This document shows positions 2,277 through 62,168 of a stretch of DNA of 64,000 nt, in pieces. Origin of the DNA: an uncultured Selenomonadales bacterium (GTDB lineage: Bacteria; Bacillota; Negativicutes; Selenomonadales; Selenomonadaceae). Below the pieces are notes generated by a model, which saw only the letters and a list, made by a program, of their open reading frames with translations, searched no databases and was not told the DNA's origin. Position 1 is the first letter of the stretch; the number at the start of each line of letters is the position of its first letter. Location: contig CALFJC010000176.1 in NCBI GenBank assembly GCA_937877655.1, positions 4,607 to 68,606 of the forward strand. The letters run 5' to 3'. A program made the translations under genes and the position numbers.

Positions 2277-2318
2277 AGCAATTAGCAATTAGCAATTAGT
2301 AATGAGTAATGAGCAATG
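2277..2318. repeat. Heptad array, left arm (AGCAATT x3, AGTAATG x2, AGCAATG); its last ATG is the start codon of the next gene
   Basis: Direct reading. It starts 3 nt after the hpt stop. It is an imperfect inverted match (about 27 of 35 positions) to the array at 2679-2717. Confidence 0.85.
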
Positions 2319-2672
2319 AAAAAATTCAATGTGATAGTTGATAAGAGCATGGATTTTGCCGTAAGGATTGTGAAGCTGTATAAATTTTTGAAGGATACTC
2401 GTTCGGAATATGTTCTTTCAAAGCAAGTTTTGAGAAGCGGCACAAGTATAGGAGCCAACATCAAGGAAGCGACCTATGCTCAATCCAAAGCAGATTTTAA
2501 CGCGAAAATGTATATTGCCATGAAAGAAGCATCTGAAACCGAATATTGGATTGAACTTCTTGAAAGAACCGAATACATAACGAAAAAGCAAGCCGAGAGT
2601 TTGCTGACAGATTGTGTCGAGCTTATTAAAATTTTGACTGCCATTACAAAAACCGTAAAGAGTAATTCCTGA
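2316..2672 (+). CDS. Four-helix-bundle protein ('23S rRNA intervening-sequence protein' family)
   Basis: 118 aa. The sequence FAVRIVKLYKFL...SKQVLRSGTSIGANIKEA...KADFNAKMYIAMKEASETEYWIELL matches the family signature as I recall it. It interrupts the conserved hpt-ftsH pair. Confidence 0.8.
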   Translation: MKKFNVIVDKSMDFAVRIVKLYKFLKDTRSEYVLSKQVLRSGTSIGANIKEATYAQSKADFNAKMYIAMKEASETEYWIELLERTEYITKKQAESLLTDCVELIKILTAITKTVKSNS

Positions 2673-2678
2673 TTCCAA

Positions 2679-2717
2679 ATTCATTACTCATTACACATTG
2701 CTCATTACACATTAATT
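2679..2717. repeat. Heptad array, right arm (TTCATTA CTCATTA CACATTG CTCATTA CACATTA ATT)
   Basis: Direct reading. Inverted with respect to 2277-2318. Confidence 0.85.
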
Positions 2718-2732: not shown

Positions 2733-4652
2733 TTGAACAGTTTTTTGCGCAACGTCGGGTTTTATTTGCTGGTGATTTTTATCGCGATAACTGCTTATGA
2801 CTATTTTTCCGTGAAGCCTCAACCTGTGGAAGAAACCGCTTATTCGCAATTTCTGGAGATGGTTGAAAAGGGCGAAGTCACGAAAGTTGTATTGGTAAAG
2901 AATACGATTAAAGTCACGAAAAAGGACGGCGGCGAGTTCACGACGATAGCACCCGACGAGCCGATTGGCGACGAAAATCTTGTCGGAAAACTCGAAGCCA
3001 AAGGAGTAGAAATAACTGCGCAGAATCCGAAAGATCCGCCGTGGTGGATGACGCTCCTTTCTTCTTTGTTGCCGATAGTAATTTTGATTGGCGCATGGTA
3101 TTTCATAATCATGCAAACTCAAGGCGGCGGCTCCAAAGTTATGTCTTTCGGGAAAAGCCGCGCAAAATTGATGGGCGGCGACAAAGTCAAAGTCACGTTT
3201 AACGACGTGGCGGGCGCGGATGAAGCCAAAGAAGAACTTCAAGAGGTCGTCGAGTTCCTTAAGCACCCGAAAAAATTTAATGATCTCGGCGCGAGAATTC
3301 CTAAAGGCGTTTTACTTTTCGGTCCGCCCGGCACGGGCAAAACTCTTTTGGCAAAAGCTGTCGCGGGAGAAGCGGGCGTTGCGTTTTTCTCTATAAGCGG
3401 CTCCGATTTTGTGGAAATGTTCGTGGGCGTCGGCGCGTCGCGAGTCAGAGATTTATTCGCGCAGGCGAAAAAAAATTCTCCCTGCATAATTTTTATTGAT
3501 GAAATTGATGCTGTCGGTCGTCAACGCGGAGTGAATGTCGGCGGCGGACATGATGAACGCGAACAAACTTTGAATCAGTTGCTTGTCGAAATGGACGGTT
3601 TCGCGCCCAACGAAGGGATAATCATAATTGCGGCAACGAACCGCCCCGACATTTTGGATCAAGCACTTTTGAGACCGGGACGCTTTGACAGACAAATTGT
3701 CGTCGATAAGCCCGATGTTGTGGGACGAATTGCGATTTTAAAAGTTCACACAAAAGGCAAGCCCATTGCGAAGGATGCCGACTTGGATATTTTGGCGCGG
3801 CGGACTCCGGGATTTACGGGCGCGGATTTGGCTAATCTTGTCAATGAAGCGGCACTTTTGGCGGCGCGCAGAAATAAACACGAAATTAACATGACGGAGC
3901 TTGAAGAATCGATTGAACGAGTTATGGCGGGTCCCGAAAGAAAATCCAAAGTCATGAGCGAGGACGAAAAAAAGTTGACGGCTTATCACGAAGGCGGACA
4001 TGCTTTGGTGGGCATGATGTTAAAGCACGCCGATCCTGTTCACAAAGTTACGATAATTCCTCGCGGCAGGGCGGGCGGTTATACTCTCATGTTGCCGAAA
4101 GAAGATCGAAGTTACGCCACGCGCTCGGAACTTTTGGACAGATTGAAAGTTGCAATGGGCGGGCGCGTCGCCGAAGAAATTGTTCTCAACGAAATTTCTA
4201 CGGGCGCATCTCAAGACATTCAGCAGGCGAGCCGCATTGTTCGCGCAATGATTATGCAATACGGCATGAGTGAACATTTGGGCTTTGTTTCTTACGGCGG
4301 CGATCCTTCTCAGCAATATTATTTCGGGCAGACGCAGAAAAATTATTCGGAGGAAGTTGCGGGCGAAATCGACAAAGAAATTCACAAGTACATGGAAGAA
4401 GCTTACGAGGCTTGCCGCACAATCATAAACGATAATCGCGACAGTCTTGAAAAAATCGCGCAGGCTTTGATGGACAAGGAGACGTTGACGGCGCAGGAAC
4501 TTAAAGATATTGTCTTCGGCGAAAAGAAAATTGATTTGGAAAAGCCGCCTGTCGACCCGCCGACTCCGCCGCCCGAACCCGTACCCGTCGAATTGGTTAA
4601 GGAAGTCGAACAACCGAAAATTCCCGACGGCTCGACGCCCGATCCCGTTTAA
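2733..4652 (+). CDS. ftsH: ATP-dependent zinc metalloprotease FtsH
   Basis: Two N-terminal TM segments, Walker A GPPGTGKT, Walker B IIFIDEID and zinc motif HEGGHAL. TTG start lies 8 nt after AAAGGGG. Confidence 0.95.
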
Positions 4653-6444: not shown

Positions 6445-7413
6445 ATGCGAAAGACAATCGTTGAGATTTTGAAGAATGCGGGCGACAATTTTGTTTCGGG
6501 CGAGAGCATCGCCGGAGAGTTGGGCATTTCCCGTACTGCTATCTGGAAACATATTCAGAAACTTCGAGAGAGCGGCTACGAAATTATCAGCCGAGAAAGA
6601 TGCGGTTACAAATTAAAAGACGCGCCCGATCTTCTTTTGCCGAGTGAAATTCAAATCGGGCTTGAAACAGAAATTATCGGCAAGAACATGGAATATCATC
6701 CTTCGGTTGACTCGACAAATCGCGTTGCAAAAGCTCTTGCCTATAACGGCGCGGAAGAAGGAACAATCGTTGTTGCCGAAGAACAGGAAGTCGGCAAAGG
6801 GCGGCTTGACAGAAAATTTTTTTCGCCGCGAGGAAAAGGCATTTGGTTTTCCGTTATTTTGCGCCCTGAAATTTTGCCGAAAGATGCTCCGAAACTTACT
6901 TTGATGGCGGCGGTTGCGGTTGCCGAAGCAATGGCGCGTTTCAATCTCAAAGCCGAGATCAAATGGCCAAACGACATTATGTTTGAAGGAAAAAAACTCG
7001 TCGGCATTTTGACGGAGATAACGGGCGAAATCGGCAAGATAACTTATATCGTCGTCGGCGTCGGAATCAATGTAAATATCAGCCGCGAAGATTTTCCCGA
7101 AGAACTTCAAGACGTTGCGGCGTCGCTTTCCGAAATGAACGGCGAAATTTTATCTCGCGTGCAAATTTTCCGCGCAGTGCTTGAAGAATTCGACAAGCTT
7201 TATATCGAAGTCAAAAATTCGGGTTTTGATAAAGTCATTGAGAGTTGGAAAAAATATAATGTCACGCTCGGAAAAAATGTTCGCGTTATCTCGGCGGGCG
7301 AAGGCGAAGATTTTACGGGCAAAGCAGTTGATTTGAATTCGGACGGAGCACTTGTCGTCGAGACTAAAAACGGACGGCGGGCGGTTTATGCGGGTGATGT
7401 TTCAATCAGATAA
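6445..7413 (+). CDS. birA: Bifunctional biotin-[acetyl-CoA-carboxylase] ligase / biotin operon repressor
   Basis: N-terminal wHTH (ELGISRTAIWKHIQKLRESGYEI), ligase core (EEQEVGKGRLDRKFFSPRGKGIWFS) and a C-terminal SH3-like tail. Confidence 0.9.
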   Translation: MRKTIVEILKNAGDNFVSGESIAGELGISRTAIWKHIQKLRESGYEIISRERCGYKLKDAPDLLLPSEIQIGLETEIIGKNMEYHPSVDSTNRVAKALAYNGAEEGTIVVAEEQEVGKGRLDRKFFSPRGKGIWFSVILRPEILPKDAPKLTLMAAVAVAEAMARFNLKAEIKWPNDIMFEGKKLVGILTEITGEIGKITYIVVGVGINVNISREDFPEELQDVAASLSEMNGEILSRVQIFRAVLEEFDKLYIEVKNSGFDKVIESWKKYNVTLGKNVRVISAGEGEDFTGKAVDLNSDGALVVETKNGRRAVYAGDVSIR

Positions 7414-7645
7414 AAATTTTTCGGATAAAAAAATCCCTCAACCTGCGCGGGCGAGGGAATTTTTTTTTTGCGCGTCGTTGTGATATATTTTGATAAAGAT
7501 TTAAGAGTTTGAAAGATTTTTTGGGACGCGGCGGGCGATGTTTCAATCAGATAAAAATTTTTCGGATAAAAAAATCCCTCAACCTGCGCGGGCGAGGGAA
7601 TTTTTTTTTGCGCGTCGTTGTGATATATTTTGATAAAGATTTAAA
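7391..7645 (+). repeat. Tandem duplication (two copies of about 114 bp, 141-bp period) covering the last birA codons, its terminator and an extended -10 promoter
   Basis: Copy 1 (7391-7505) and copy 2 (7532-7645) are near-identical, with one T less in the T-run and C/T at position 5. Each holds a GDVSIR-stop, the hairpin CCCTC..GAGGG plus T-run (7435-7469 and 7576-7609), and TGATATATT (7481-7489 and 7621-7629). Confidence 0.9.
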
Positions 7646-7662
7646 GGTTTGGAGGCTTTTTT

Positions 7663-9009
7663 TTGAACGCAAGAGATATAGACATGTTGCACGGCTCGCT
7701 GTGGGACAAAATAATTATTTTCGCGTTGCCGCTGGCAATAACGGGCGGTATGCAACAATTTTTAAATGCGACGGACGTTTTCACATTGGGACAATTCGTC
7801 GGGAAAAATGCAATGGCGGCGGTCGGCAACAATACTTCGATGGTCGGATTAATCGTCAGCTTGATGATGGGCTTGAGTCTCGGCGCGAACGTCGTTATCG
7901 CCCAAAATATCGGCGCACAAAAAATTGATCGCGCACAATCGGCGGTGAGCACGGCTTTTATCTTGGCGGGCATTTGCGGAATTCTTTTCTGTATAATCGC
8001 GGAACTTTTGGTCGAGCCGATTTTTTATTTCTTGGAAGTGCCGTCAAGCGTCGTGGAAATGGCGGAAACTTATCTGCGAATTTTTCTGCTCGGCTTGCCC
8101 GCGATAAGTTTCTACAATTTTCAAGCGGCGATTTTCCGAAGCAAAGGCGACACGCGCACGCCGTTAATCGCATTGGTTTTTGCAAGCATTGCGAATATCA
8201 TTTTGAATTTAATTTTTGTCCTGCAATTCGATTTGGGAGTTGCGGGCGTGGCGGCGGCGACAGTCCTTGCCAATTTTTTAAGCGCACTGATTTTATTCCG
8301 AGAACTTTTGAAAGCCGAAGGAATTATAAAACTCCATCTCAACGCGCTGATTGTCGACAAGGAAGAGCTTTTTGAAATTGTCCGAATCGGTTTGCCGGCG
8401 GGCATTCAGGGAATGGTTTTTTCTCTGTCGAATCTTTTGATTCAAGCGGCGATAAATTCTTTGGGCGCGGACGCAATGGCGGCTTCGGCGGCGGCGTTTA
8501 CAATCGAAATAAATGTTTTCTGCGTGGTAAACGGCTTCGGGCAGGCGACAACAACTTTTGTCGGACAAAATTACGGCGCGGGAAATTTGCCTCGTTGCAA
8601 GCGGGCGACTTGGGTTTCAATGGGCTTGAGTGCATTTTTCACGCAGACGCTTTGCTTTATGATTTTATTTTTTGTGGAAGAAGTTTTGAGTCTCTTCAAC
8701 GAAGACCCCGAAGTCCTTCGGCTCGGCGCAATTCGGCTTTGGTATATCGTCGCGCCCGAAATGCTGAATGTAATTCTGGAAACTTTATCGGGAGCTCTGC
8801 GCGGCTACGGAATTTCAATGACGCCTGCCGTAATAACTTTGATTTGCGTTTGCGGCTTGCGGGTGACTTGGGTTTTCACGGCTTTTGAAAAAATCCCGAC
8901 CTACGAAACTTTGATGCTCGTTTATCCCCTAAGCTGGCTCCTCACGACGATCTGTTTAATCTTCGCATATTTTTATCACATAAAGAGATTGAAACCTGCG
9001 CGGAAATAA
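7663..9009 (+). CDS. MATE-family efflux transporter
   Basis: 448 aa, about 12 hydrophobic segments, MatE-like N-terminus (LWDKIIIFALPLAITGGMQQFLNATD). GGAGG lies 7 nt before TTG 7663. Confidence 0.85.
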   Translation: MNARDIDMLHGSLWDKIIIFALPLAITGGMQQFLNATDVFTLGQFVGKNAMAAVGNNTSMVGLIVSLMMGLSLGANVVIAQNIGAQKIDRAQSAVSTAFILAGICGILFCIIAELLVEPIFYFLEVPSSVVEMAETYLRIFLLGLPAISFYNFQAAIFRSKGDTRTPLIALVFASIANIILNLIFVLQFDLGVAGVAAATVLANFLSALILFRELLKAEGIIKLHLNALIVDKEELFEIVRIGLPAGIQGMVFSLSNLLIQAAINSLGADAMAASAAAFTIEINVFCVVNGFGQATTTFVGQNYGAGNLPRCKRATWVSMGLSAFFTQTLCFMILFFVEEVLSLFNEDPEVLRLGAIRLWYIVAPEMLNVILETLSGALRGYGISMTPAVITLICVCGLRVTWVFTAFEKIPTYETLMLVYPLSWLLTTICLIFAYFYHIKRLKPARK

Positions 9010-12631: not shown

Positions 12632-14590
12632 ATGATTCAGCGAGTCTTGGGCGGGCGTTATGAATTGGAAGAGAAAATCGGCAGCGGCGGCATGGCGGAA
12701 GTTTACAAAGCTCACGACAGACTCCTTTCTCGTCCCGTAGCGATAAAAATTTTACATGCGGAATATCGTTCGGACGTAGAATTTATTGAAAGATTTCATC
12801 GCGAGGCAAAAGCGGCGGCGCGCCTTTCGCATCCGAATATTGTCAGCATTTATGATGTCGGAGTTGCCGGCAACGATCATTATATCGTTATGGAGTATGT
12901 TAAGGGCGATACTCTCAAGAAAAAAATGCAGGACGAAGGACCGCTTGAGCTTTTGACGGCAACTTCAATCGCAAAAGACATTGCAAACGGCTTGACGCAC
13001 GCGCACGCAAATAATATCGTTCACTGCGACATCAAGCCGCACAACATTTTAATGACGGAAGACGATCACGCAAAAATTACAGATTTTGGAATTGCCCGCG
13101 CAGTCACGGAATCGACGCTGACTTACGGCGGGAGCGTTGTCGGCTCCGTTCATTATTTTTCGCCCGAACAAGCTCGCGGCGGCGCGATAACTCCCAAGTC
13201 CGACGTTTATTCTTTGGGGATTGTGCTTTATGAAATGTTGACAAATAAATTGCCGTTCACGGGCGACAATCCCGTTGCAATAGCGATGAAACACATTGAA
13301 GAGGATCCGATTACTCCGAGCCGTTATCGCCCGCAAATTCCGCCGATGCTTGAGGCTATCGTCTGTCGAGCAATGAGTAAAAGTCCCGAAATTCGCCCGT
13401 CGAGTTTTGAACTTGTCCAAGAACTTTCAAAAGTCGAATCGGCATTGAGTGTAACGCAGAGAAGCGACCCCGATGCCACAAAACGTTTGCCGCGAACAGA
13501 AATTCCCCCGCGCCGCACAGATCGTCAAGGTTTGGGAACTCAAGGCAACAATCAAGAAGAATCCAAAAAGCCCGAAGTCAAACAGAAACCTTTTTACAAG
13601 ACGAAAACTTTCATGGCGATGATGTTTTTCGTTTTGGTAATGGGCTTCGGCGTAGGGATTTTTGCGGCGTTCGGAAAAGTTTGGAACACGGAAAATGTCG
13701 TAACGGTTCCCGACGTAAAAGGCAAGCAACTTGCATTGGCGCGACAAATTTTGGAGGACGGACATCTTCGCGTGAACATTGCCGAAACTTACGACGCAAC
13801 TGTTCCTGCGGGGCAAGTTGTTTCGCAAGACCCCGACTTCGGCAAGACGGTTAAAAGCGACAGAGTTGTTACAATTTACGTCAGCAAGGGCGGCGAAGAA
13901 ATCGAAATGCCCGATCTTGCAGGTTTGGCGAAATCCGCCGCGCTTGAAAGACTGCAAAAGCTCGGCTTGAATGTGGGCAGTGTTTACGAAAAAGATTCTT
14001 CAAGCGAACCGGGAACTGTTTTATCTCATGACCCGACGACGGGCACGAAAATTATTCGCGGACAAGCGATTGATTTAATCGTTTCTCGCGGCGGCGGCGA
14101 ACCCGACAATAAATCTGATAATAAAACCGACAATAAATCCGACAATAAGTCTGACAATAAATCCGACAATAAAAAGGCTGACGAACCGAAATCCGAAAAA
14201 AAATTTGCTCGCGTCCCCGACGTTTACAGTTCGGGGCTCGGCTCGGCTGAAGACAGCATAGAAAATCGCGGGCTTTATGTCGGCTCCGTCACTTATCAAG
14301 AAAGTTCGCAGGCGGAAGGCACGGTTATTTCTCAATATCCCTCGCCCGACGTTGAAGTTGAAGTCGGATCTTATGTCGATTTGGTAATTGCAAGTCGTCC
14401 TGCTCCGCAACCCGAACCGGAGCCTGAACCTGTCCGTGAGCCCGAACCTTATCATGAACCGGAACCTTATCGCGAACCCGAACCTGTCCGCGAACTCGAA
14501 CCGCAACCGCAATCGAACGATTTTCCCGATATTCCCGTTCAAAATGATGTGCCGAGCCGCGAAGACAACGATCAATCTAAAGGGAGATAG
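12632..14590 (+). CDS. prkC: Ser/Thr protein kinase with three extracellular PASTA domains (PrkC/PknB type)
   Basis: Hanks motifs GSGGMAEVYKA, VAIK, HCDIKPHN, DFG and SPEQ. One TM segment (FMAMMFFVLVMGFGVGIFAAF). Three PASTA units. A (DNKS/T)x6 linker at about 14101-14172 and an EP-rich tail at about 14400-14520. Confidence 0.92.
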   Translation: MIQRVLGGRYELEEKIGSGGMAEVYKAHDRLLSRPVAIKILHAEYRSDVEFIERFHREAKAAARLSHPNIVSIYDVGVAGNDHYIVMEYVKGDTLKKKMQDEGPLELLTATSIAKDIANGLTHAHANNIVHCDIKPHNILMTEDDHAKITDFGIARAVTESTLTYGGSVVGSVHYFSPEQARGGAITPKSDVYSLGIVLYEMLTNKLPFTGDNPVAIAMKHIEEDPITPSRYRPQIPPMLEAIVCRAMSKSPEIRPSSFELVQELSKVESALSVTQRSDPDATKRLPRTEIPPRRTDRQGLGTQGNNQEESKKPEVKQKPFYKTKTFMAMMFFVLVMGFGVGIFAAFGKVWNTENVVTVPDVKGKQLALARQILEDGHLRVNIAETYDATVPAGQVVSQDPDFGKTVKSDRVVTIYVSKGGEEIEMPDLAGLAKSAALERLQKLGLNVGSVYEKDSSSEPGTVLSHDPTTGTKIIRGQAIDLIVSRGGGEPDNKSDNKTDNKSDNKSDNKSDNKKADEPKSEKKFARVPDVYSSGLGSAEDSIENRGLYVGSVTYQESSQAEGTVISQYPSPDVEVEVGSYVDLVIASRPAPQPEPEPEPVREPEPYHEPEPYREPEPVRELEPQPQSNDFPDIPVQNDVPSREDNDQSKGR

Positions 14591-14814: not shown

Positions 14815-14841
14815 CATTACGCATTACGAATTACGCATTGC
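14815..14841. repeat. Heptad array (CATTACG CATTACG AATTACG CATTGC) between repeat copies A and B
   Basis: Direct reading. Confidence 0.7.
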
Positions 14842-15586: not shown

Positions 15587-17365
15587 ATGGATATTCTCCA
15601 AGAAAAATTGAAAACGTTGCCCGCCGCGCCCGGCGTTTACCTCATGAAAGATATTCGCGGGAAAATTATTTATGTCGGCAAGGCTAAGGTTTTAAAAAAT
15701 CGCGTCCGCCAATATTTTCAATCGAATAAAAATCTCGGCGCGAAAGTCAAGGCAATGGTCGCCAAAATCGTCGACTTTGAAACAATCGTCACGTCAAACG
15801 AAGTCGAGGCTCTGATTTTGGAATGCAATTTGATTAAAAAATATCGCCCGCGCTACAATATCAGTCTCAAGGACGATAAAAGTTATCCTTATCTCAAAAT
15901 CACTGCCGAAGAATTTCCGCGAATAATTTTGACGCGGCGCGTGATTCATGACGGCTCGCGATATTTCGGACCTTACACGAACGGGCTTGCCGTCAAGGAA
16001 ACTCTTCAACTTTTAAGAAAAATTTTTCCGCTCCGAACTTGCAGAATTTTTTCAAAGCGTCCGTGTTTGGAGTTTCACATTAAACGATGCCTCGCGCCCT
16101 GTGCAAACAAAATTTCTCGCGAAGATTATATGCGCTTTGTCAATGCGGCAGAAAAATTTTTGGAAGGACACACCGCGCAGGTTGAACGCGAAATTTCTGC
16201 ACAGATGACGGCGGCGGCGGAGGCATTGAATTTTGAACAGGCGGCGAAGTTCAGAGATATTTTGTCGGCAATAAGAAAAGTTACGGAGAAACAAAAAATC
16301 GTAACCGATTTGGGCGACGCGGACGCAATAGGCTTGGCGCGGCTTGACAGCGAGACTTGCGCACAGATTTTTTTTATTCGAGACGGAAAAGTTGTCGGGC
16401 GCGAAAATTTTTTATTAAACGGCGCGGCGGACGAATCGGACGCGCAGGCAGTCACGGAATTTATAAAGCAATATTACAGTCGGGCGCAAATTTCGGCGAC
16501 AGAAATTTTATTGCCCGTCGCATTGGCGGAAGACGATTTAAAAATTTTGGCTGAATGGCTCGGCGCGAAAATTTTGGAGCCGAAACGCGGCGTGAAACGT
16601 TCGCTGGTTGAAATGGCGATTGAAAACGCGCAGAAATTTTTGTCGGAAGAATCTGCGCGGCGACAAATAAAAAATGCACAGACAAAAGGCGCGGTCGAGG
16701 AGCTGAAAAAATTTTTGAACTTGCCGAAACTCCCGCGCCGCATGGAGTGCTTTGACATTTCGCATATTCAAGGCGCGGAAACTGTAGCGTCAATGGTTGT
16801 GTTTGAAGACGGCGTGCCCGATAAAAAAAGTTATCGCCGCTTCAAAATTCGTTCGACGGAAGGCAAGCCCGATGATTTTTTGTCAATGCGCGAAGTCACG
16901 AGCCGCCGATATGAGAAACTTTCCGAAGAAAATTTGCCCGACTTAATAGTTATCGACGGCGGAATCGGGCAATTAAATTCTGCGCTTGAAATAATTCGCG
17001 GCGCGGGACATAAAGTGCCCGTCGTCGGCTTGGCAAAACAATTTGAATTGATTTTCGTTGAAGGCGCGTCAATCCCCGTCGAATTGCCCAAAGACAGTCA
17101 AGCGTTAAAACTTCTGCAGAGAATCCGTGACGAAGCCCATCGATTTGCGATAACTTATCACAGAAAACTTCGGCGGGCACGAAATTTGAAATCGGAATTG
17201 GACAATGTGGCGGGCATCGGAGCGAAAAGACGCGCCGAGCTGTTTAAAAAATTCGGGACGATAGAAAAAATAAAATCGGCAACGGTTGAGGAACTTGCCG
17301 CCGTGCCGAGCATGAATCGCGCCGCCGCCGAAGCCTTGAAAAGGCAATTAGGAATTATGAATTAG
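15587..17365 (+). CDS. uvrC: Excinuclease ABC subunit C
   Basis: GIY-YIG N-terminus (PGVYLMKDIRGKIIYVGKA...YF), UVR domain (FEQAAKFRD) and a C-terminal HhH pair. 592 aa. Confidence 0.95.
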   Translation: MDILQEKLKTLPAAPGVYLMKDIRGKIIYVGKAKVLKNRVRQYFQSNKNLGAKVKAMVAKIVDFETIVTSNEVEALILECNLIKKYRPRYNISLKDDKSYPYLKITAEEFPRIILTRRVIHDGSRYFGPYTNGLAVKETLQLLRKIFPLRTCRIFSKRPCLEFHIKRCLAPCANKISREDYMRFVNAAEKFLEGHTAQVEREISAQMTAAAEALNFEQAAKFRDILSAIRKVTEKQKIVTDLGDADAIGLARLDSETCAQIFFIRDGKVVGRENFLLNGAADESDAQAVTEFIKQYYSRAQISATEILLPVALAEDDLKILAEWLGAKILEPKRGVKRSLVEMAIENAQKFLSEESARRQIKNAQTKGAVEELKKFLNLPKLPRRMECFDISHIQGAETVASMVVFEDGVPDKKSYRRFKIRSTEGKPDDFLSMREVTSRRYEKLSEENLPDLIVIDGGIGQLNSALEIIRGAGHKVPVVGLAKQFELIFVEGASIPVELPKDSQALKLLQRIRDEAHRFAITYHRKLRRARNLKSELDNVAGIGAKRRAELFKKFGTIEKIKSATVEELAAVPSMNRAAAEALKRQLGIMN

Positions 17366-17424
17366 GAATTAGGAATTAGGAATGAAAAACCTATTCCCTA
17401 GTTCCTAGTTCCTAGTTCCTAATT
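17345..17424. repeat. Palindromic heptad array (AATTAGG-type arm / CCTAGTT-type arm) forming a hairpin between the convergent uvrC and nagA
   Basis: The left arm has five heptads and the right arm five, with a GAAAAA loop. The uvrC stop (17363-17365) and the nagA stop (17412-17414) both lie inside the arms. There is no canonical T-run. Confidence 0.85.
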
Positions 17425-18542
17425 AAATTCCCGTTTACAAAAGTCTTCTTAATGTTAAAGTCGTCGTCAAAGATTGTGATGTCCGCCGCCTTGCCGACTT
17501 CCAAAGAGCCCGTCTTGTCGAAAATACCGAGTTCGACGGCGGGATTTTTTGTTACGAGTTCGACGCCCGCCGCAATATCGGTTGAAGTGTTTTCGCAGAA
17601 ATTTTTTAAAACGTTGTTCAAAGTTGCGACACTGCCCGCAAGTGTTCCGTCTTCCAACGTTGCGACATTTCCTTTGACGAAAACTTTTTGTCCGCCCAAT
17701 TCGCTTAAACCGTCGCCCAAGCCGCAAGCCCGCAATGAATCTGTTATCAAAATAATTTCACTGCGCGGCTTGACTTTGGCAACAATTCTCTGCGCGGCGG
17801 GGCAGACGTGAACATTATCGGCAATGAGTTCGACAATCGCGCTTGAATCAAAAGCCGCGCCGACGACGCCGGGTTTTCTGTGATGAAGTCCGCTTTGGGC
17901 GTTGAAAAGATGCGTTATGTGATTTGCGCCGCGAGCAATCGCCGCCATTGCAATTTCGTAAGTAGCCGCGCTGTGACCGATTGAGACGATGATATTTTTT
18001 TCGCGACAACGATCGATAAAATCAAAATCAATTTCTTCAGGCGCAACGGTAATGATTTTAATCACGTCGAAGAAATTTTTTATCAAAGAAAAATCTGCGC
18101 GGATAATATTTTCTTCAGCCTGCGCGCCTTTAAATTTTTTGCTGATAAAGCCGCCTTCCATATTGGCTCCGAGAATTTTTGCGCCTTGAGAAAAATTTTT
18201 CCCGATTCTGATTCTCTTCAAAGCCCGATAAATTTTTTCAAGCGGCATGGTCATTGTGGTTGGCAAAAAACTTGTGACGCCCGTCGAAGGCAAAAACTCT
18301 GCAAAATTTTTCAAAGCGTTGATGTTTTCGTCCATAGTATCGAAACCTGCCGCGCCGTGAATGTGAATGTTTATGAAACCCGGCGACACGAAATTATTTT
18401 CCGCGTCGATAATCTCCGCGCCTTCAATCGGCTTGCCGACGGAAATAATTTTCTCATCGAAATTCAAAGCCGAGCCCGCGCAGATTTTAAAATTACCATT
18501 CGAGTCGGGCAGAATCAATCGCCCGTTAATCAAAGTCATCAT
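17412..18542 (-). CDS. nagA: N-acetylglucosamine-6-phosphate deacetylase
   Basis: Amidohydrolase HxH (FINIHIHGAAGFD) and NagA-like core (ITHLFNA, HHR). GGAGG (18555-18551) lies 8 nt before ATG 18542. Confidence 0.85.
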   Translation of the reverse strand: MMTLINGRLILPDSNGNFKICAGSALNFDEKIISVGKPIEGAEIIDAENNFVSPGFINIHIHGAAGFDTMDENINALKNFAEFLPSTGVTSFLPTTMTMPLEKIYRALKRIRIGKNFSQGAKILGANMEGGFISKKFKGAQAEENIIRADFSLIKNFFDVIKIITVAPEEIDFDFIDRCREKNIIVSIGHSAATYEIAMAAIARGANHITHLFNAQSGLHHRKPGVVGAAFDSSAIVELIADNVHVCPAAQRIVAKVKPRSEIILITDSLRACGLGDGLSELGGQKVFVKGNVATLEDGTLAGSVATLNNVLKNFCENTSTDIAAGVELVTKNPAVELGIFDKTGSLEVGKAADITIFDDDFNIKKTFVNGNLIRN

Positions 18543-61711: not shown

Positions 61712-61913
61712 TTTTTGATTTGCATTGGCTGTTTAAGGAGACTAATTTTTTTCAAAAGTTTTAGTTGTATACTGCGTGTTACACGTGACACTCCCCACGC
61801 CTAAAGGCAGGGGCTTCTTATTTTAAATTAAATAATTTTGGTTTGGCTTTTGCCGCAAGGTCTGATGAACACTCGTTGCCCGGACATTAAAAAAAATCAG
61901 CAACGCGACGAAA

Positions 61914-61977
61914 CAATTAGCAATGTGCAATTAGTAATGAAAATTCATTGCTAATTACTCATTACTCATTACTAATT
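61914..61977. repeat. Palindromic heptad array (AATTAGC/AATTAGT arm versus CATTACT arm)
   Basis: CAATTAGCAATGTGCAATTAGTAATG aaaatt CATTGCTAATTACTCATTACTCATTACTAATT. Same unit type as the arms flanking the four-helix-bundle gene. Confidence 0.85.
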
Positions 61978-62168
61978 AAGAAGTCGCGGCTGGTGCCTCA
62001 GCTACTATTACTTTGAAGTTATCGCCGTAGATACTGACCGAACCCATTGGTTGGCTTTCAGAAATCAACACAAGGGAATTATAACAACAGTTTTTTCAAA
62101 AACCAATAACGCCGCTTAATATCTTTCGAGACACGTTTTCGATAAAAAATATTTTGGAGGAATGCATT

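Follow-up and report, generated by a model that had tools for sequence, protein, structure and literature searches.

The window analysed here, a 64,000-nt stretch of the genome of an uncultured Selenomonadales bacterium (contig CALFJC010000176.1, positions 4,607 to 68,606), contains between hpt and ftsH a 118-codon gene for a PF05635 (TIGR02436) four-helix-bundle protein that is enclosed by two inverted arrays of tandem 7-nt units; gene and arms together are referred to below as the cassette. The locus is read from the forward strand and starts with a tilS-like gene (719 to 1711, identified as an open reading frame (ORF); the upstream orthologue on the metagenome contig L144 has PF01171), followed by the hypoxanthine phosphoribosyltransferase-type gene hpt (1708 to 2274; PF00156, E 4.1e-29; stop codon TGA at 2272 to 2274), which is 92-96% identical to its counterparts in the nearest congeners. 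The left (5') arm (2277 to 2317; Tandem Repeats Finder period 7, 5.9 copies, 91% matches) is G-rich relative to the right arm and consists of six heptads in the order AATTAGC, AATTAGC, AATTAGT, AATGAGT, AATGAGC and AATGAAA, the last of which supplies the ATG of the gene (2316 to 2318). The gene occupies 2316 to 2672, with its TGA stop codon at 2670 to 2672, and is followed by the C-rich right (3') arm (2680 to 2717; period 7 at 2681 to 2714, 4.9 copies, 81% matches) with the five heptads TTCATTA, CTCATTA, CACATTG, CTCATTA and CACATTA, whose ATTAA end adjoins the Shine-Dalgarno sequence of ftsH. The ftsH gene itself (2733 to 4652; PF06480, PF00004, PF17862 and PF01434) begins with a TTG at 2733, its ribosome-binding site AAAGGGG lies at about 2718 to 2724, immediately 3' of the right arm, and the sequence AAAGGRGCGTTTTGATTGAA is kept in congeners both with and without the cassette.

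In inverted orientation the two arms are complementary over 34 nt at 79% (27/34) or over 33 nt at 82%, and in a further register 19 nt match at 95%. The loop of the resulting stem is filled exactly by the ORF, which starts within or beside the left arm and stops at the right arm. An earlier interpretation of this DNA, made from the letters without database searches and termed the sequence-only reading here, had proposed a 118-codon gene between inverted heptad arms matching at about 27 of 35 positions; repeat finding, arm alignment and the PF05635 match bear out the arrangement, the computed value is 27 of 34, and the right arm does follow the stop codon, at an offset of 8 nt and not 7 as had been stated.

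The window protein matches PF05635 with 106.5 bits (cut-off 33.8; E 1e-30) and TIGR02436 with 117.4 bits (cut-off 24; E 3.3e-34), and the family profile is related, by sequence homology only, to the structures PDB 2RLD (E 2.6e-41) and 2GSC/Xcc0516 (E 1.4e-31). Xcc0516 has a four-helix-bundle fold and assembles into a pentameric ring. A correspondence between such a pentamer and five units per arm was considered and dropped, because the median is about 3-4 strictly scored units, with no clear five. The residues of R40-x3-S44-x3-N48-x2-E51 are invariant in the mixed-subfamily alignment A1, where the window protein reads LRSGTSIGANIKEA; the conserved motif of the family is G-x2-R-x3-S-x3-N-x2-E (Lin 2006; Zhang 2013, PMC3936711). 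All five PF05635 proteins of the genome are basic (isoelectric points 8.6-9.3). The dN/dS ratio of the window gene against its relatives is 0.08-0.22, and values of 0.06-0.32 among orthologues and close paralogues indicate that the protein is maintained by purifying selection.

Packaging between inverted arms is the norm for the PF05635 family. All five PF05635 genes of the genome are bracketed by inverted tandem heptad arrays, which is the check that the sequence-only reading had proposed for the paralogues, and the unit differs in each: AATTAGC/AATGAGT at hpt|ftsH in the window (contig C176), GGGAAAA between cheB and cheA (C136), TTATAGC between murD and murG (C3), TAGGAAC between atpG and atpD (C9), and AATTAGG in the C177 cassette, which lies 3' of an unidentified co-oriented gene and 5' of a terminator-like hairpin. 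Every copy adjoins protein-coding genes, four lying between two genes and the C177 copy after one, and neither the window cassette nor any of the other four is inserted in a helix of 23S rRNA. By comparison, heptad arrays flank both sides of 45 of the 2366 genes of the genome (1.9%), and two-sided arrays are about 30-fold enriched at PF05635 genes over all genes. Within the genus, 23 of 30 assessable PF05635 genes reach an arm score of 24 or more (95th percentile of shuffled sequences 17, shuffle maximum 26). A cross-phylum locus search seeded with the subfamily alignment A2 gave 79 assessable loci from Oscillospiraceae, Bacteroidales, Verrucomicrobia, Chlorobium, Nitrosomonas, Acidobacteriota, Planctomycetota, the candidate phyla radiation and others; arms scored at least 24 in 48 of these and at least 30 in 38, and period 7 was dominant, being clear in both arms at 23 loci and in one arm at 17 more. 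The proposed ORF-in-stem-loop layout within an mRNA operon is thus real and typical of the family.

The arms of each copy co-vary. Cognate arm pairs average a score of 39.7, against 16.5 (the background level) for non-cognate pairs, and in 17 of 26 cassettes the best partner of the left arm is its own right arm. The cassettes are also strongly oriented: 26 of 28 genus cassettes point the same way as both neighbours, and across phyla 44 are co-oriented with both, 15 stand at an operon end and two are antisense between co-directional genes. The gaps from the cassette gene to the upstream stop codon and to the downstream start codon are about 40-60 nt and barely exceed the arms.

Other cargo between heptad arms was sought by inspecting 14 of the 44 inverted array pairs lying 160-3000 nt apart, picked by eye. 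Beyond the C177 cassette, these were mostly ordinary genes beside separate hairpins, together with two short ORF-poor spacers (C169 and C139). At C169:6655-7020, AATTAGG-type inverted arms enclose a core of 192-286 nt without a convincing ORF or a PF05635 remnant, which may be a decayed cassette or non-coding cargo. At C96:22787-23113, two heptad hairpins surround a 269-nt ORF-poor stretch (CTTGACGGTAAGGATGAAAAGGCAGGG...) that resembles a structured RNA.

When the RNA from 2268 to 2735 was folded, the two arms paired with each other in the minimum-energy structure and also in the centroid (-104.7 kcal/mol, shuffle mean -92.3, z -2.35), in line with the arm pairing that had been expected for the hpt-ftsH intergenic transcript. 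Neither arm of the window cassette forms a terminator-like site, the arms being A+T-rich and without a T run after them, and no convincing promoter was found directly upstream of the cassette gene. A promoter-like sequence, a consensus match only, falls within the gene's 3' end (2604 to 2632; CTGACA, 17-nt spacer, TAAAAT) and is directed at ftsH; if this promoter is real, the cassette would itself supply drive to the gene downstream.

The history of the site was followed in relatives. The hpt-ftsH junction was recovered from 23 congeneric species representatives, and in none of them does it contain the cassette. Eleven have a gene-free spacer of 26-155 nt, three of which (L018, L026 and L027) contain gene-less heptad or palindromic hairpins; eight (L008-L010, L012, L015, L022, L024 and L025) have a gene for a protein of about 190-215 aa with a signal-peptide-like N-terminus, apparently secreted and matching no NCBIfam family; and L019 has a 378-aa cysteine-rich, radical-SAM-like ORF. 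The cassette does lie between hpt and ftsH, as the sequence-only reading had said, but the pair it splits is not constantly adjacent, since nine of the 23 congeners have another gene in between. The junction is a hot spot of gene turnover.

Metagenome contigs supplied the closest homologues of the window protein, with 86-92% identity; these occupy the same tilS-hpt|cassette|ftsH position, and no relative was found with the gene at this junction and without the repeats. The cassette at hpt|ftsH is confined to this one sub-lineage. Unit number and unit type vary among the orthologous cassettes: the left arm of L147 has four units, the arms of L144 are a mixture of AATGAGC, AATTAGC and AATTAGG, and in L143 AATGAGT/ACTCATT is replaced by AATGCGT/ACGCATT in all units of both arms in concert. 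Since the cassette is present in the metagenomic relatives and in none of the congeners, it appears to have been acquired once in the sub-lineage, after which its arms turned over in situ. The tetranucleotide AAAG stands on both sides of the window cassette, and a comparison of filled and empty junctions of relatives gave no consistent target-site duplication. The hpt stop codon is TGA in all cassette bearers (L143-L149) and TAA in the nearest cassette-free relatives (L007, L011 and L014), a difference that may reflect lineage history or be a consequence of the insertion.

Heptad arrays are not limited to the cassettes. The genome contains 393 of them, compared with one in the block-shuffled genome; 320 are mostly intergenic, and AATTAGG is the dominant unit in 191. 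Close inverted pairing accounts for 160 arrays, which form 80 gene-less hairpins, and 233 are unpaired. The G-rich arm is the 5' arm in all 80 gene-less hairpins, on either strand, and the same G-rich-first polarity is found in 18 of 18 genus cassettes and in 34 of 39 cross-phylum left arms. Two gene-less hairpins of the window had been put forward as empty versions of the cassette. The one at 61914 to 61977 (AATTAGC/AATGTGC/AATTAGT...ACTCATT/ACTAATT, loop GAAAA) belongs to the unit class of the window cassette, and its RNA (61905 to 61985) folds with -17.7 kcal/mol (z -3.6) on the plus strand and -23.4 kcal/mol (z -4.3) on the minus strand; the one at 17345 to 17424, of the AATTAGG / CCTAGTT class, folds with -38.6 kcal/mol (17340 to 17430, z -8.4). 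Both are real palindromes that fold well, neither has the form of an intrinsic terminator (A+T-rich arms, no T run), and gene-less hairpins of the same unit classes as the cassettes are abundant in the genome, in agreement with the proposal. The hairpins span their spacers from stop codon to the next ribosome-binding site, and many AATTAGG hairpins share signature variant units with the arms of the C177 cassette.

Upstream of the cassette operon, the spacer between an S1-domain gene and tilS carries a composite heptad array (657 to 705; Tandem Repeats Finder 674 to 704) of TAGGAAC-type units followed by four AAAACCT units; its G-rich half comes first, the usual polarity, and the two halves do not complement each other. 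In congeners, the orthologous spacer contains a hairpin that looks rho-independent, a different array, a single unit or nothing. Beyond ftsH, synteny with congeners is too weak for comparing the arrays at 14815 and 17345. A role of the heptads in providing stop codons in all frames was considered and rejected, because GGGAAAA- and CAGTGGT-type units have none. Several contigs of the assembly begin or end in heptad arrays (C19:3-55, C109:13-36, C124:95-127, C138:97-124 and C146:107-134); the repeats thus probably break the assembly, and PF05635 cassettes may be under-counted in fragmented metagenome-assembled genomes (MAGs). Two further repeats of the window are a 141-nt intergenic unit in two tandem copies (7390 to 7670; 92% matches), containing runs of A/T and a hairpin-like core rich in G+C, and a 12-nt tandem repeat, CCGACAATAAAT, in 5.9 copies (14103 to 14173) with a 36-nt super-period, which has no relation to the heptad families.

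Genomes that lack PF05635 genes are largely without genome-wide heptad arrays. In sampled DNA of 16 congeners, array density follows PF05635 gene number (Spearman rho 0.74), six of eight gene-free congeners have no array in the 25-92 kb sampled, and the out-group contrast points in the same direction. A whole-genome search of 41 genomes for (TAGG-N3)x4 found arrays in 15 of 17 PF05635-positive and four of 24 PF05635-negative genomes (Fisher p 6e-6, kinship ignored); within the genus the figures are 14 of 16 and four of nine (rho 0.58), and a control with the reversed pattern gave counts near zero. Among congeners that are at least 90% complete, all eight PF05635-positive genomes have arrays and the single gene-free one has none.

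Unit classes are shared between cassette arms and dispersed arrays of the same genome. The only cassette of the congener G017 has AAAGCTC/AAAGCTT arms, and this class recurs at at least three other loci of the 72-kb G017 sample, with zero occurrences of the AAAGCTC class in the window's genome; the murD|murG cassette of the latter, orthologous to that of G017, has arms of TTATAGC, and 17 arrays of this class occur here. A scheme of one heptad class per paralogue was tried, five classes fitting the five cassettes. AATGCGT (11 arrays) has no resident gene, and orthologous PF05635 genes that are 76-79% identical carry different units, so that strict one-to-one cognate specificity is not supported. 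Furthermore, the genome, which is 100% complete, has no match to reverse transcriptase (PF00078), nor have the heptad-rich congeners G016, G017 and G002; a Y1/RAYT transposase (PF01797) is likewise without a match in the genome and in G016 and G017.

The explanation that we favour, with a probability of roughly 0.55, is that of a promoter-less cassette of the intervening sequence (IVS) type, a PF05635 gene in the loop of a stem of about 35 bp built from heptad arrays, which is gained and lost, is sense-oriented and is looped away from the mRNA by its arms. Read-through from tilS-hpt would transcribe the cassette, and the arms would then zip in the RNA and loop the cargo out. The zipped arms would keep the hpt stop codon near the ftsH ribosome-binding site, as in cassette-free relatives, would occlude the start codon of the cargo itself, and could present a long double-stranded substrate to RNase III, by analogy with Coxiella (see below). 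The insertion would thereby be silent in structure as far as the host operon is concerned, and it would probably be open to processing. Cassettes and gene-less heptad hairpins may represent a single system that spreads and decays within genomes and comes and goes with the PF05635 gene, the basic four-helix-bundle protein being its likeliest trans-acting component. The sequence-only reading had suggested that the stem is either an RNase III-type processing site or the footprint of a mobile cassette. By analogy with the Coxiella IVS the stem may be the former, and the presence or absence of the cassette at orthologous sites, together with arrays that track the gene family, lends indirect support to the latter.

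Several observations weigh against the favoured explanation. The arms of the window cassette are complementary to only about 80%, and the mismatches in cassette stems do not carry the signature expected of an RNA strand (12 G.U versus 12 A.C). The 32 gene-less hairpins between co-directional genes likewise show no bias in strand stability (sense 16, antisense 16), and gene-less hairpins occur in all spacer types at background proportions (co-directional:convergent:divergent 32:9:6, background 1681:328:346), so that an element acting at the DNA level fits them as well as one acting at the RNA level. The co-occurrence statistics for arrays and PF05635 genes ignore phylogeny, and all four PF05635-negative MAGs with arrays are 70-89% complete. 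Finally, neither an insertion mechanism nor a recombinase nor a consistent target-site duplication came to light.

The absence of G.U and sense-strand bias and the fixed G-rich-5' polarity favour a DNA-level component, and an alternative that we regard as possible, at clearly lower probability than the favoured explanation, is a mobile element that works at the DNA level. Its arrays would be terminal repeats or a hairpin/cruciform target, the protein a mobility or maintenance factor, the gene-less hairpins non-autonomous derivatives comparable to MITEs (miniature inverted-repeat transposable elements), and the RNA stem a by-product; it overlaps with the looped-out cassette and differs from it in the level under selection. 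Presence or absence at orthologous sites and the tracking of the family by the arrays would follow from such an element, yet no transposase, integrase, reverse transcriptase or Y1/RAYT gene is linked to the cassette (the last two being absent genome-wide), no clear target-site duplication is seen, and no catalytic activity is known for a helical bundle of 118 aa. The same element would account for hairpins in every spacer type, for the signature mismatches that hairpins share with the C177 cassette arms and for genome-specific unit classes common to cassette arms and dispersed arrays; the arm sequence varies between copies of one genome, however, unlike inverted repeats recognised by a transposase. 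The strong sense-orientation bias, moreover, shows selection via transcription and favours a constraint at the level of RNA or expression.

We consider it unlikely that the arrays are ordinary slippage-made repeats and hairpins of the host (mRNA stabilisers, attenuators or devices of translation coupling) beside which the gene merely survives without a functional tie. Heptamer repeats are over-represented in bacterial spacers without a link to a gene (PMC4692102; PMC4679880), unit number differs among orthologous cassettes, 233 arrays are unpaired, and the four PF05635-negative MAGs have arrays; however, two-sided arrays are about 30-fold enriched at PF05635 genes, the ORF exactly fills the loop, the arms match their cognates, and 20 of the 24 gene-free genomes have no arrays. 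Least probable by far is that the gene encodes the Avd accessory protein of a diversity-generating retroelement (DGR), a notion prompted by the homology of Avd to PF05635 and refuted by the lack of a reverse transcriptase in the genome; the enzyme is also missing from the heptad-rich congeners, and the neighbours of the gene are hpt and ftsH. In the distant relative G035, a weak PF05635 match lies 517 nt upstream of a reverse transcriptase (C20:37385-38794, L052), probably a true DGR Avd-RT pair, and this Avd-like gene has no arms (score 10).

The closest known counterpart of the cassette is the S23p IVS of Coxiella burnetii, in which tandem heptamers lie in the stem before the start codon and RNase III cuts the stem (Warrier et al. 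2016, PMC4990558). ORF-bearing IVSs of 23S rRNA occur in Coxiella burnetii, Leptospira, Brucella and Xanthomonas, and the element is regarded as selfish (PMC4990558). The window cassette shares with them the PF05635 family, an ORF in the loop of a stem formed by terminal inverted repeats, and heptamers directly before the start codon; as in Coxiella, where heptamer copy number is strain-variable, unit number differs among its orthologues. In contrast to the 23S rRNA elements, its host is the spacer of an mRNA operon (hpt-ftsH) and not helix 25 or 45 of 23S rRNA, and hundreds of gene-less heptad arrays accompany it in the genome. Whereas the Coxiella S23p ORF is reported to be decaying (PMC4990558), the protein of the present cassette is under purifying selection.

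Heptamer repeats have been described as over-represented in Xanthomonas (GGGAATC) and Nostoc (GGGGAYT) (Rehm et al. 2015, PMC4692102), and TAACTGA repeats form another published set (MacGregor 2015, PMC4679880); Xanthomonas has 70-75 inverted pairs of the 'convergent' kind, in which the G-rich repeat leads (PMC4692102). Like these and the cyanobacterial short tandemly repeated repetitive (STRR) heptamers, the present arrays are intergenic tandem 7-nt units of lineage-specific sequence, and they share the G-rich-first polarity with Xanthomonas. Unlike the published repeats, they stand on both sides of PF05635 genes and occur across genomes in step with these genes. In a term search, neither PMC4692102 nor PMC4679880 mentioned S23, 'four helix' or intervening sequence, and in the literature searched heptamers were tied to S23p only within the Coxiella IVS.

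Other systems resemble the cassette in part. Avd acts on nucleic acid with a partner enzyme. It is a homologous basic four-helix-bundle protein, as in the cassette, but no reverse transcriptase adjoins the window gene or occurs in the genome; the search did not extend to template and variable repeats. Repetitive extragenic palindromes and bacterial interspersed mosaic elements with their associated tyrosine transposases (REP/BIME-RAYT), as well as MITEs, are likewise short palindromic intergenic multi-copy repeats, and the gene-bearing and gene-less copies described here resemble autonomous and non-autonomous elements. A REP/RAYT system is ruled out by the lack of a PF01797 match in the genome. 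Unlike MITEs and transposons with terminal inverted repeats, the five cassettes have five unit types and arms of tandem heptads, and no consistent target-site duplication was seen. Integron cassettes, too, are promoter-less single ORFs that are inserted in sense, depend on outside transcription and have a folding imperfect inverted repeat. Here, in contrast, there are arms on both sides of the ORF, the insertions are scattered over housekeeping operons and not arrayed, and no integrase adjoins the window cassette; integrases and attI were not searched for genome-wide.

A broader proposal, which we put forward as speculative, is that PF05635 proteins are the trans-acting part of a repeat system free of transposase and reverse transcriptase, recognising inward G-rich heptad arrays and driving their formation, homogenisation or spread. 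Cassettes would be the autonomous members of this system, hairpins and single arrays their progeny, the 23S rRNA IVS one special landing site, and the bacterial excess of heptamers largely its footprint. The genus is a good test bed for such questions, as close relatives differ both in the gene family and in repeat content, and the hpt|ftsH junction occurs empty, with a hairpin only, filled with the cassette, and with arms switched to another unit in concert. PF05635 genes scattered in cas operons have been interpreted as functional partners (PMC3936711); the packaging described here explains how such genes can stand within unrelated operons, those of cas among them, without belonging to them, and also explains assembly breaks at these repeats. 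Three loose ends, namely the function of S23p/PF05635 proteins, the origin of ORF-bearing rRNA IVSs and the excess of 7-base repeats in bacteria, are perhaps one.

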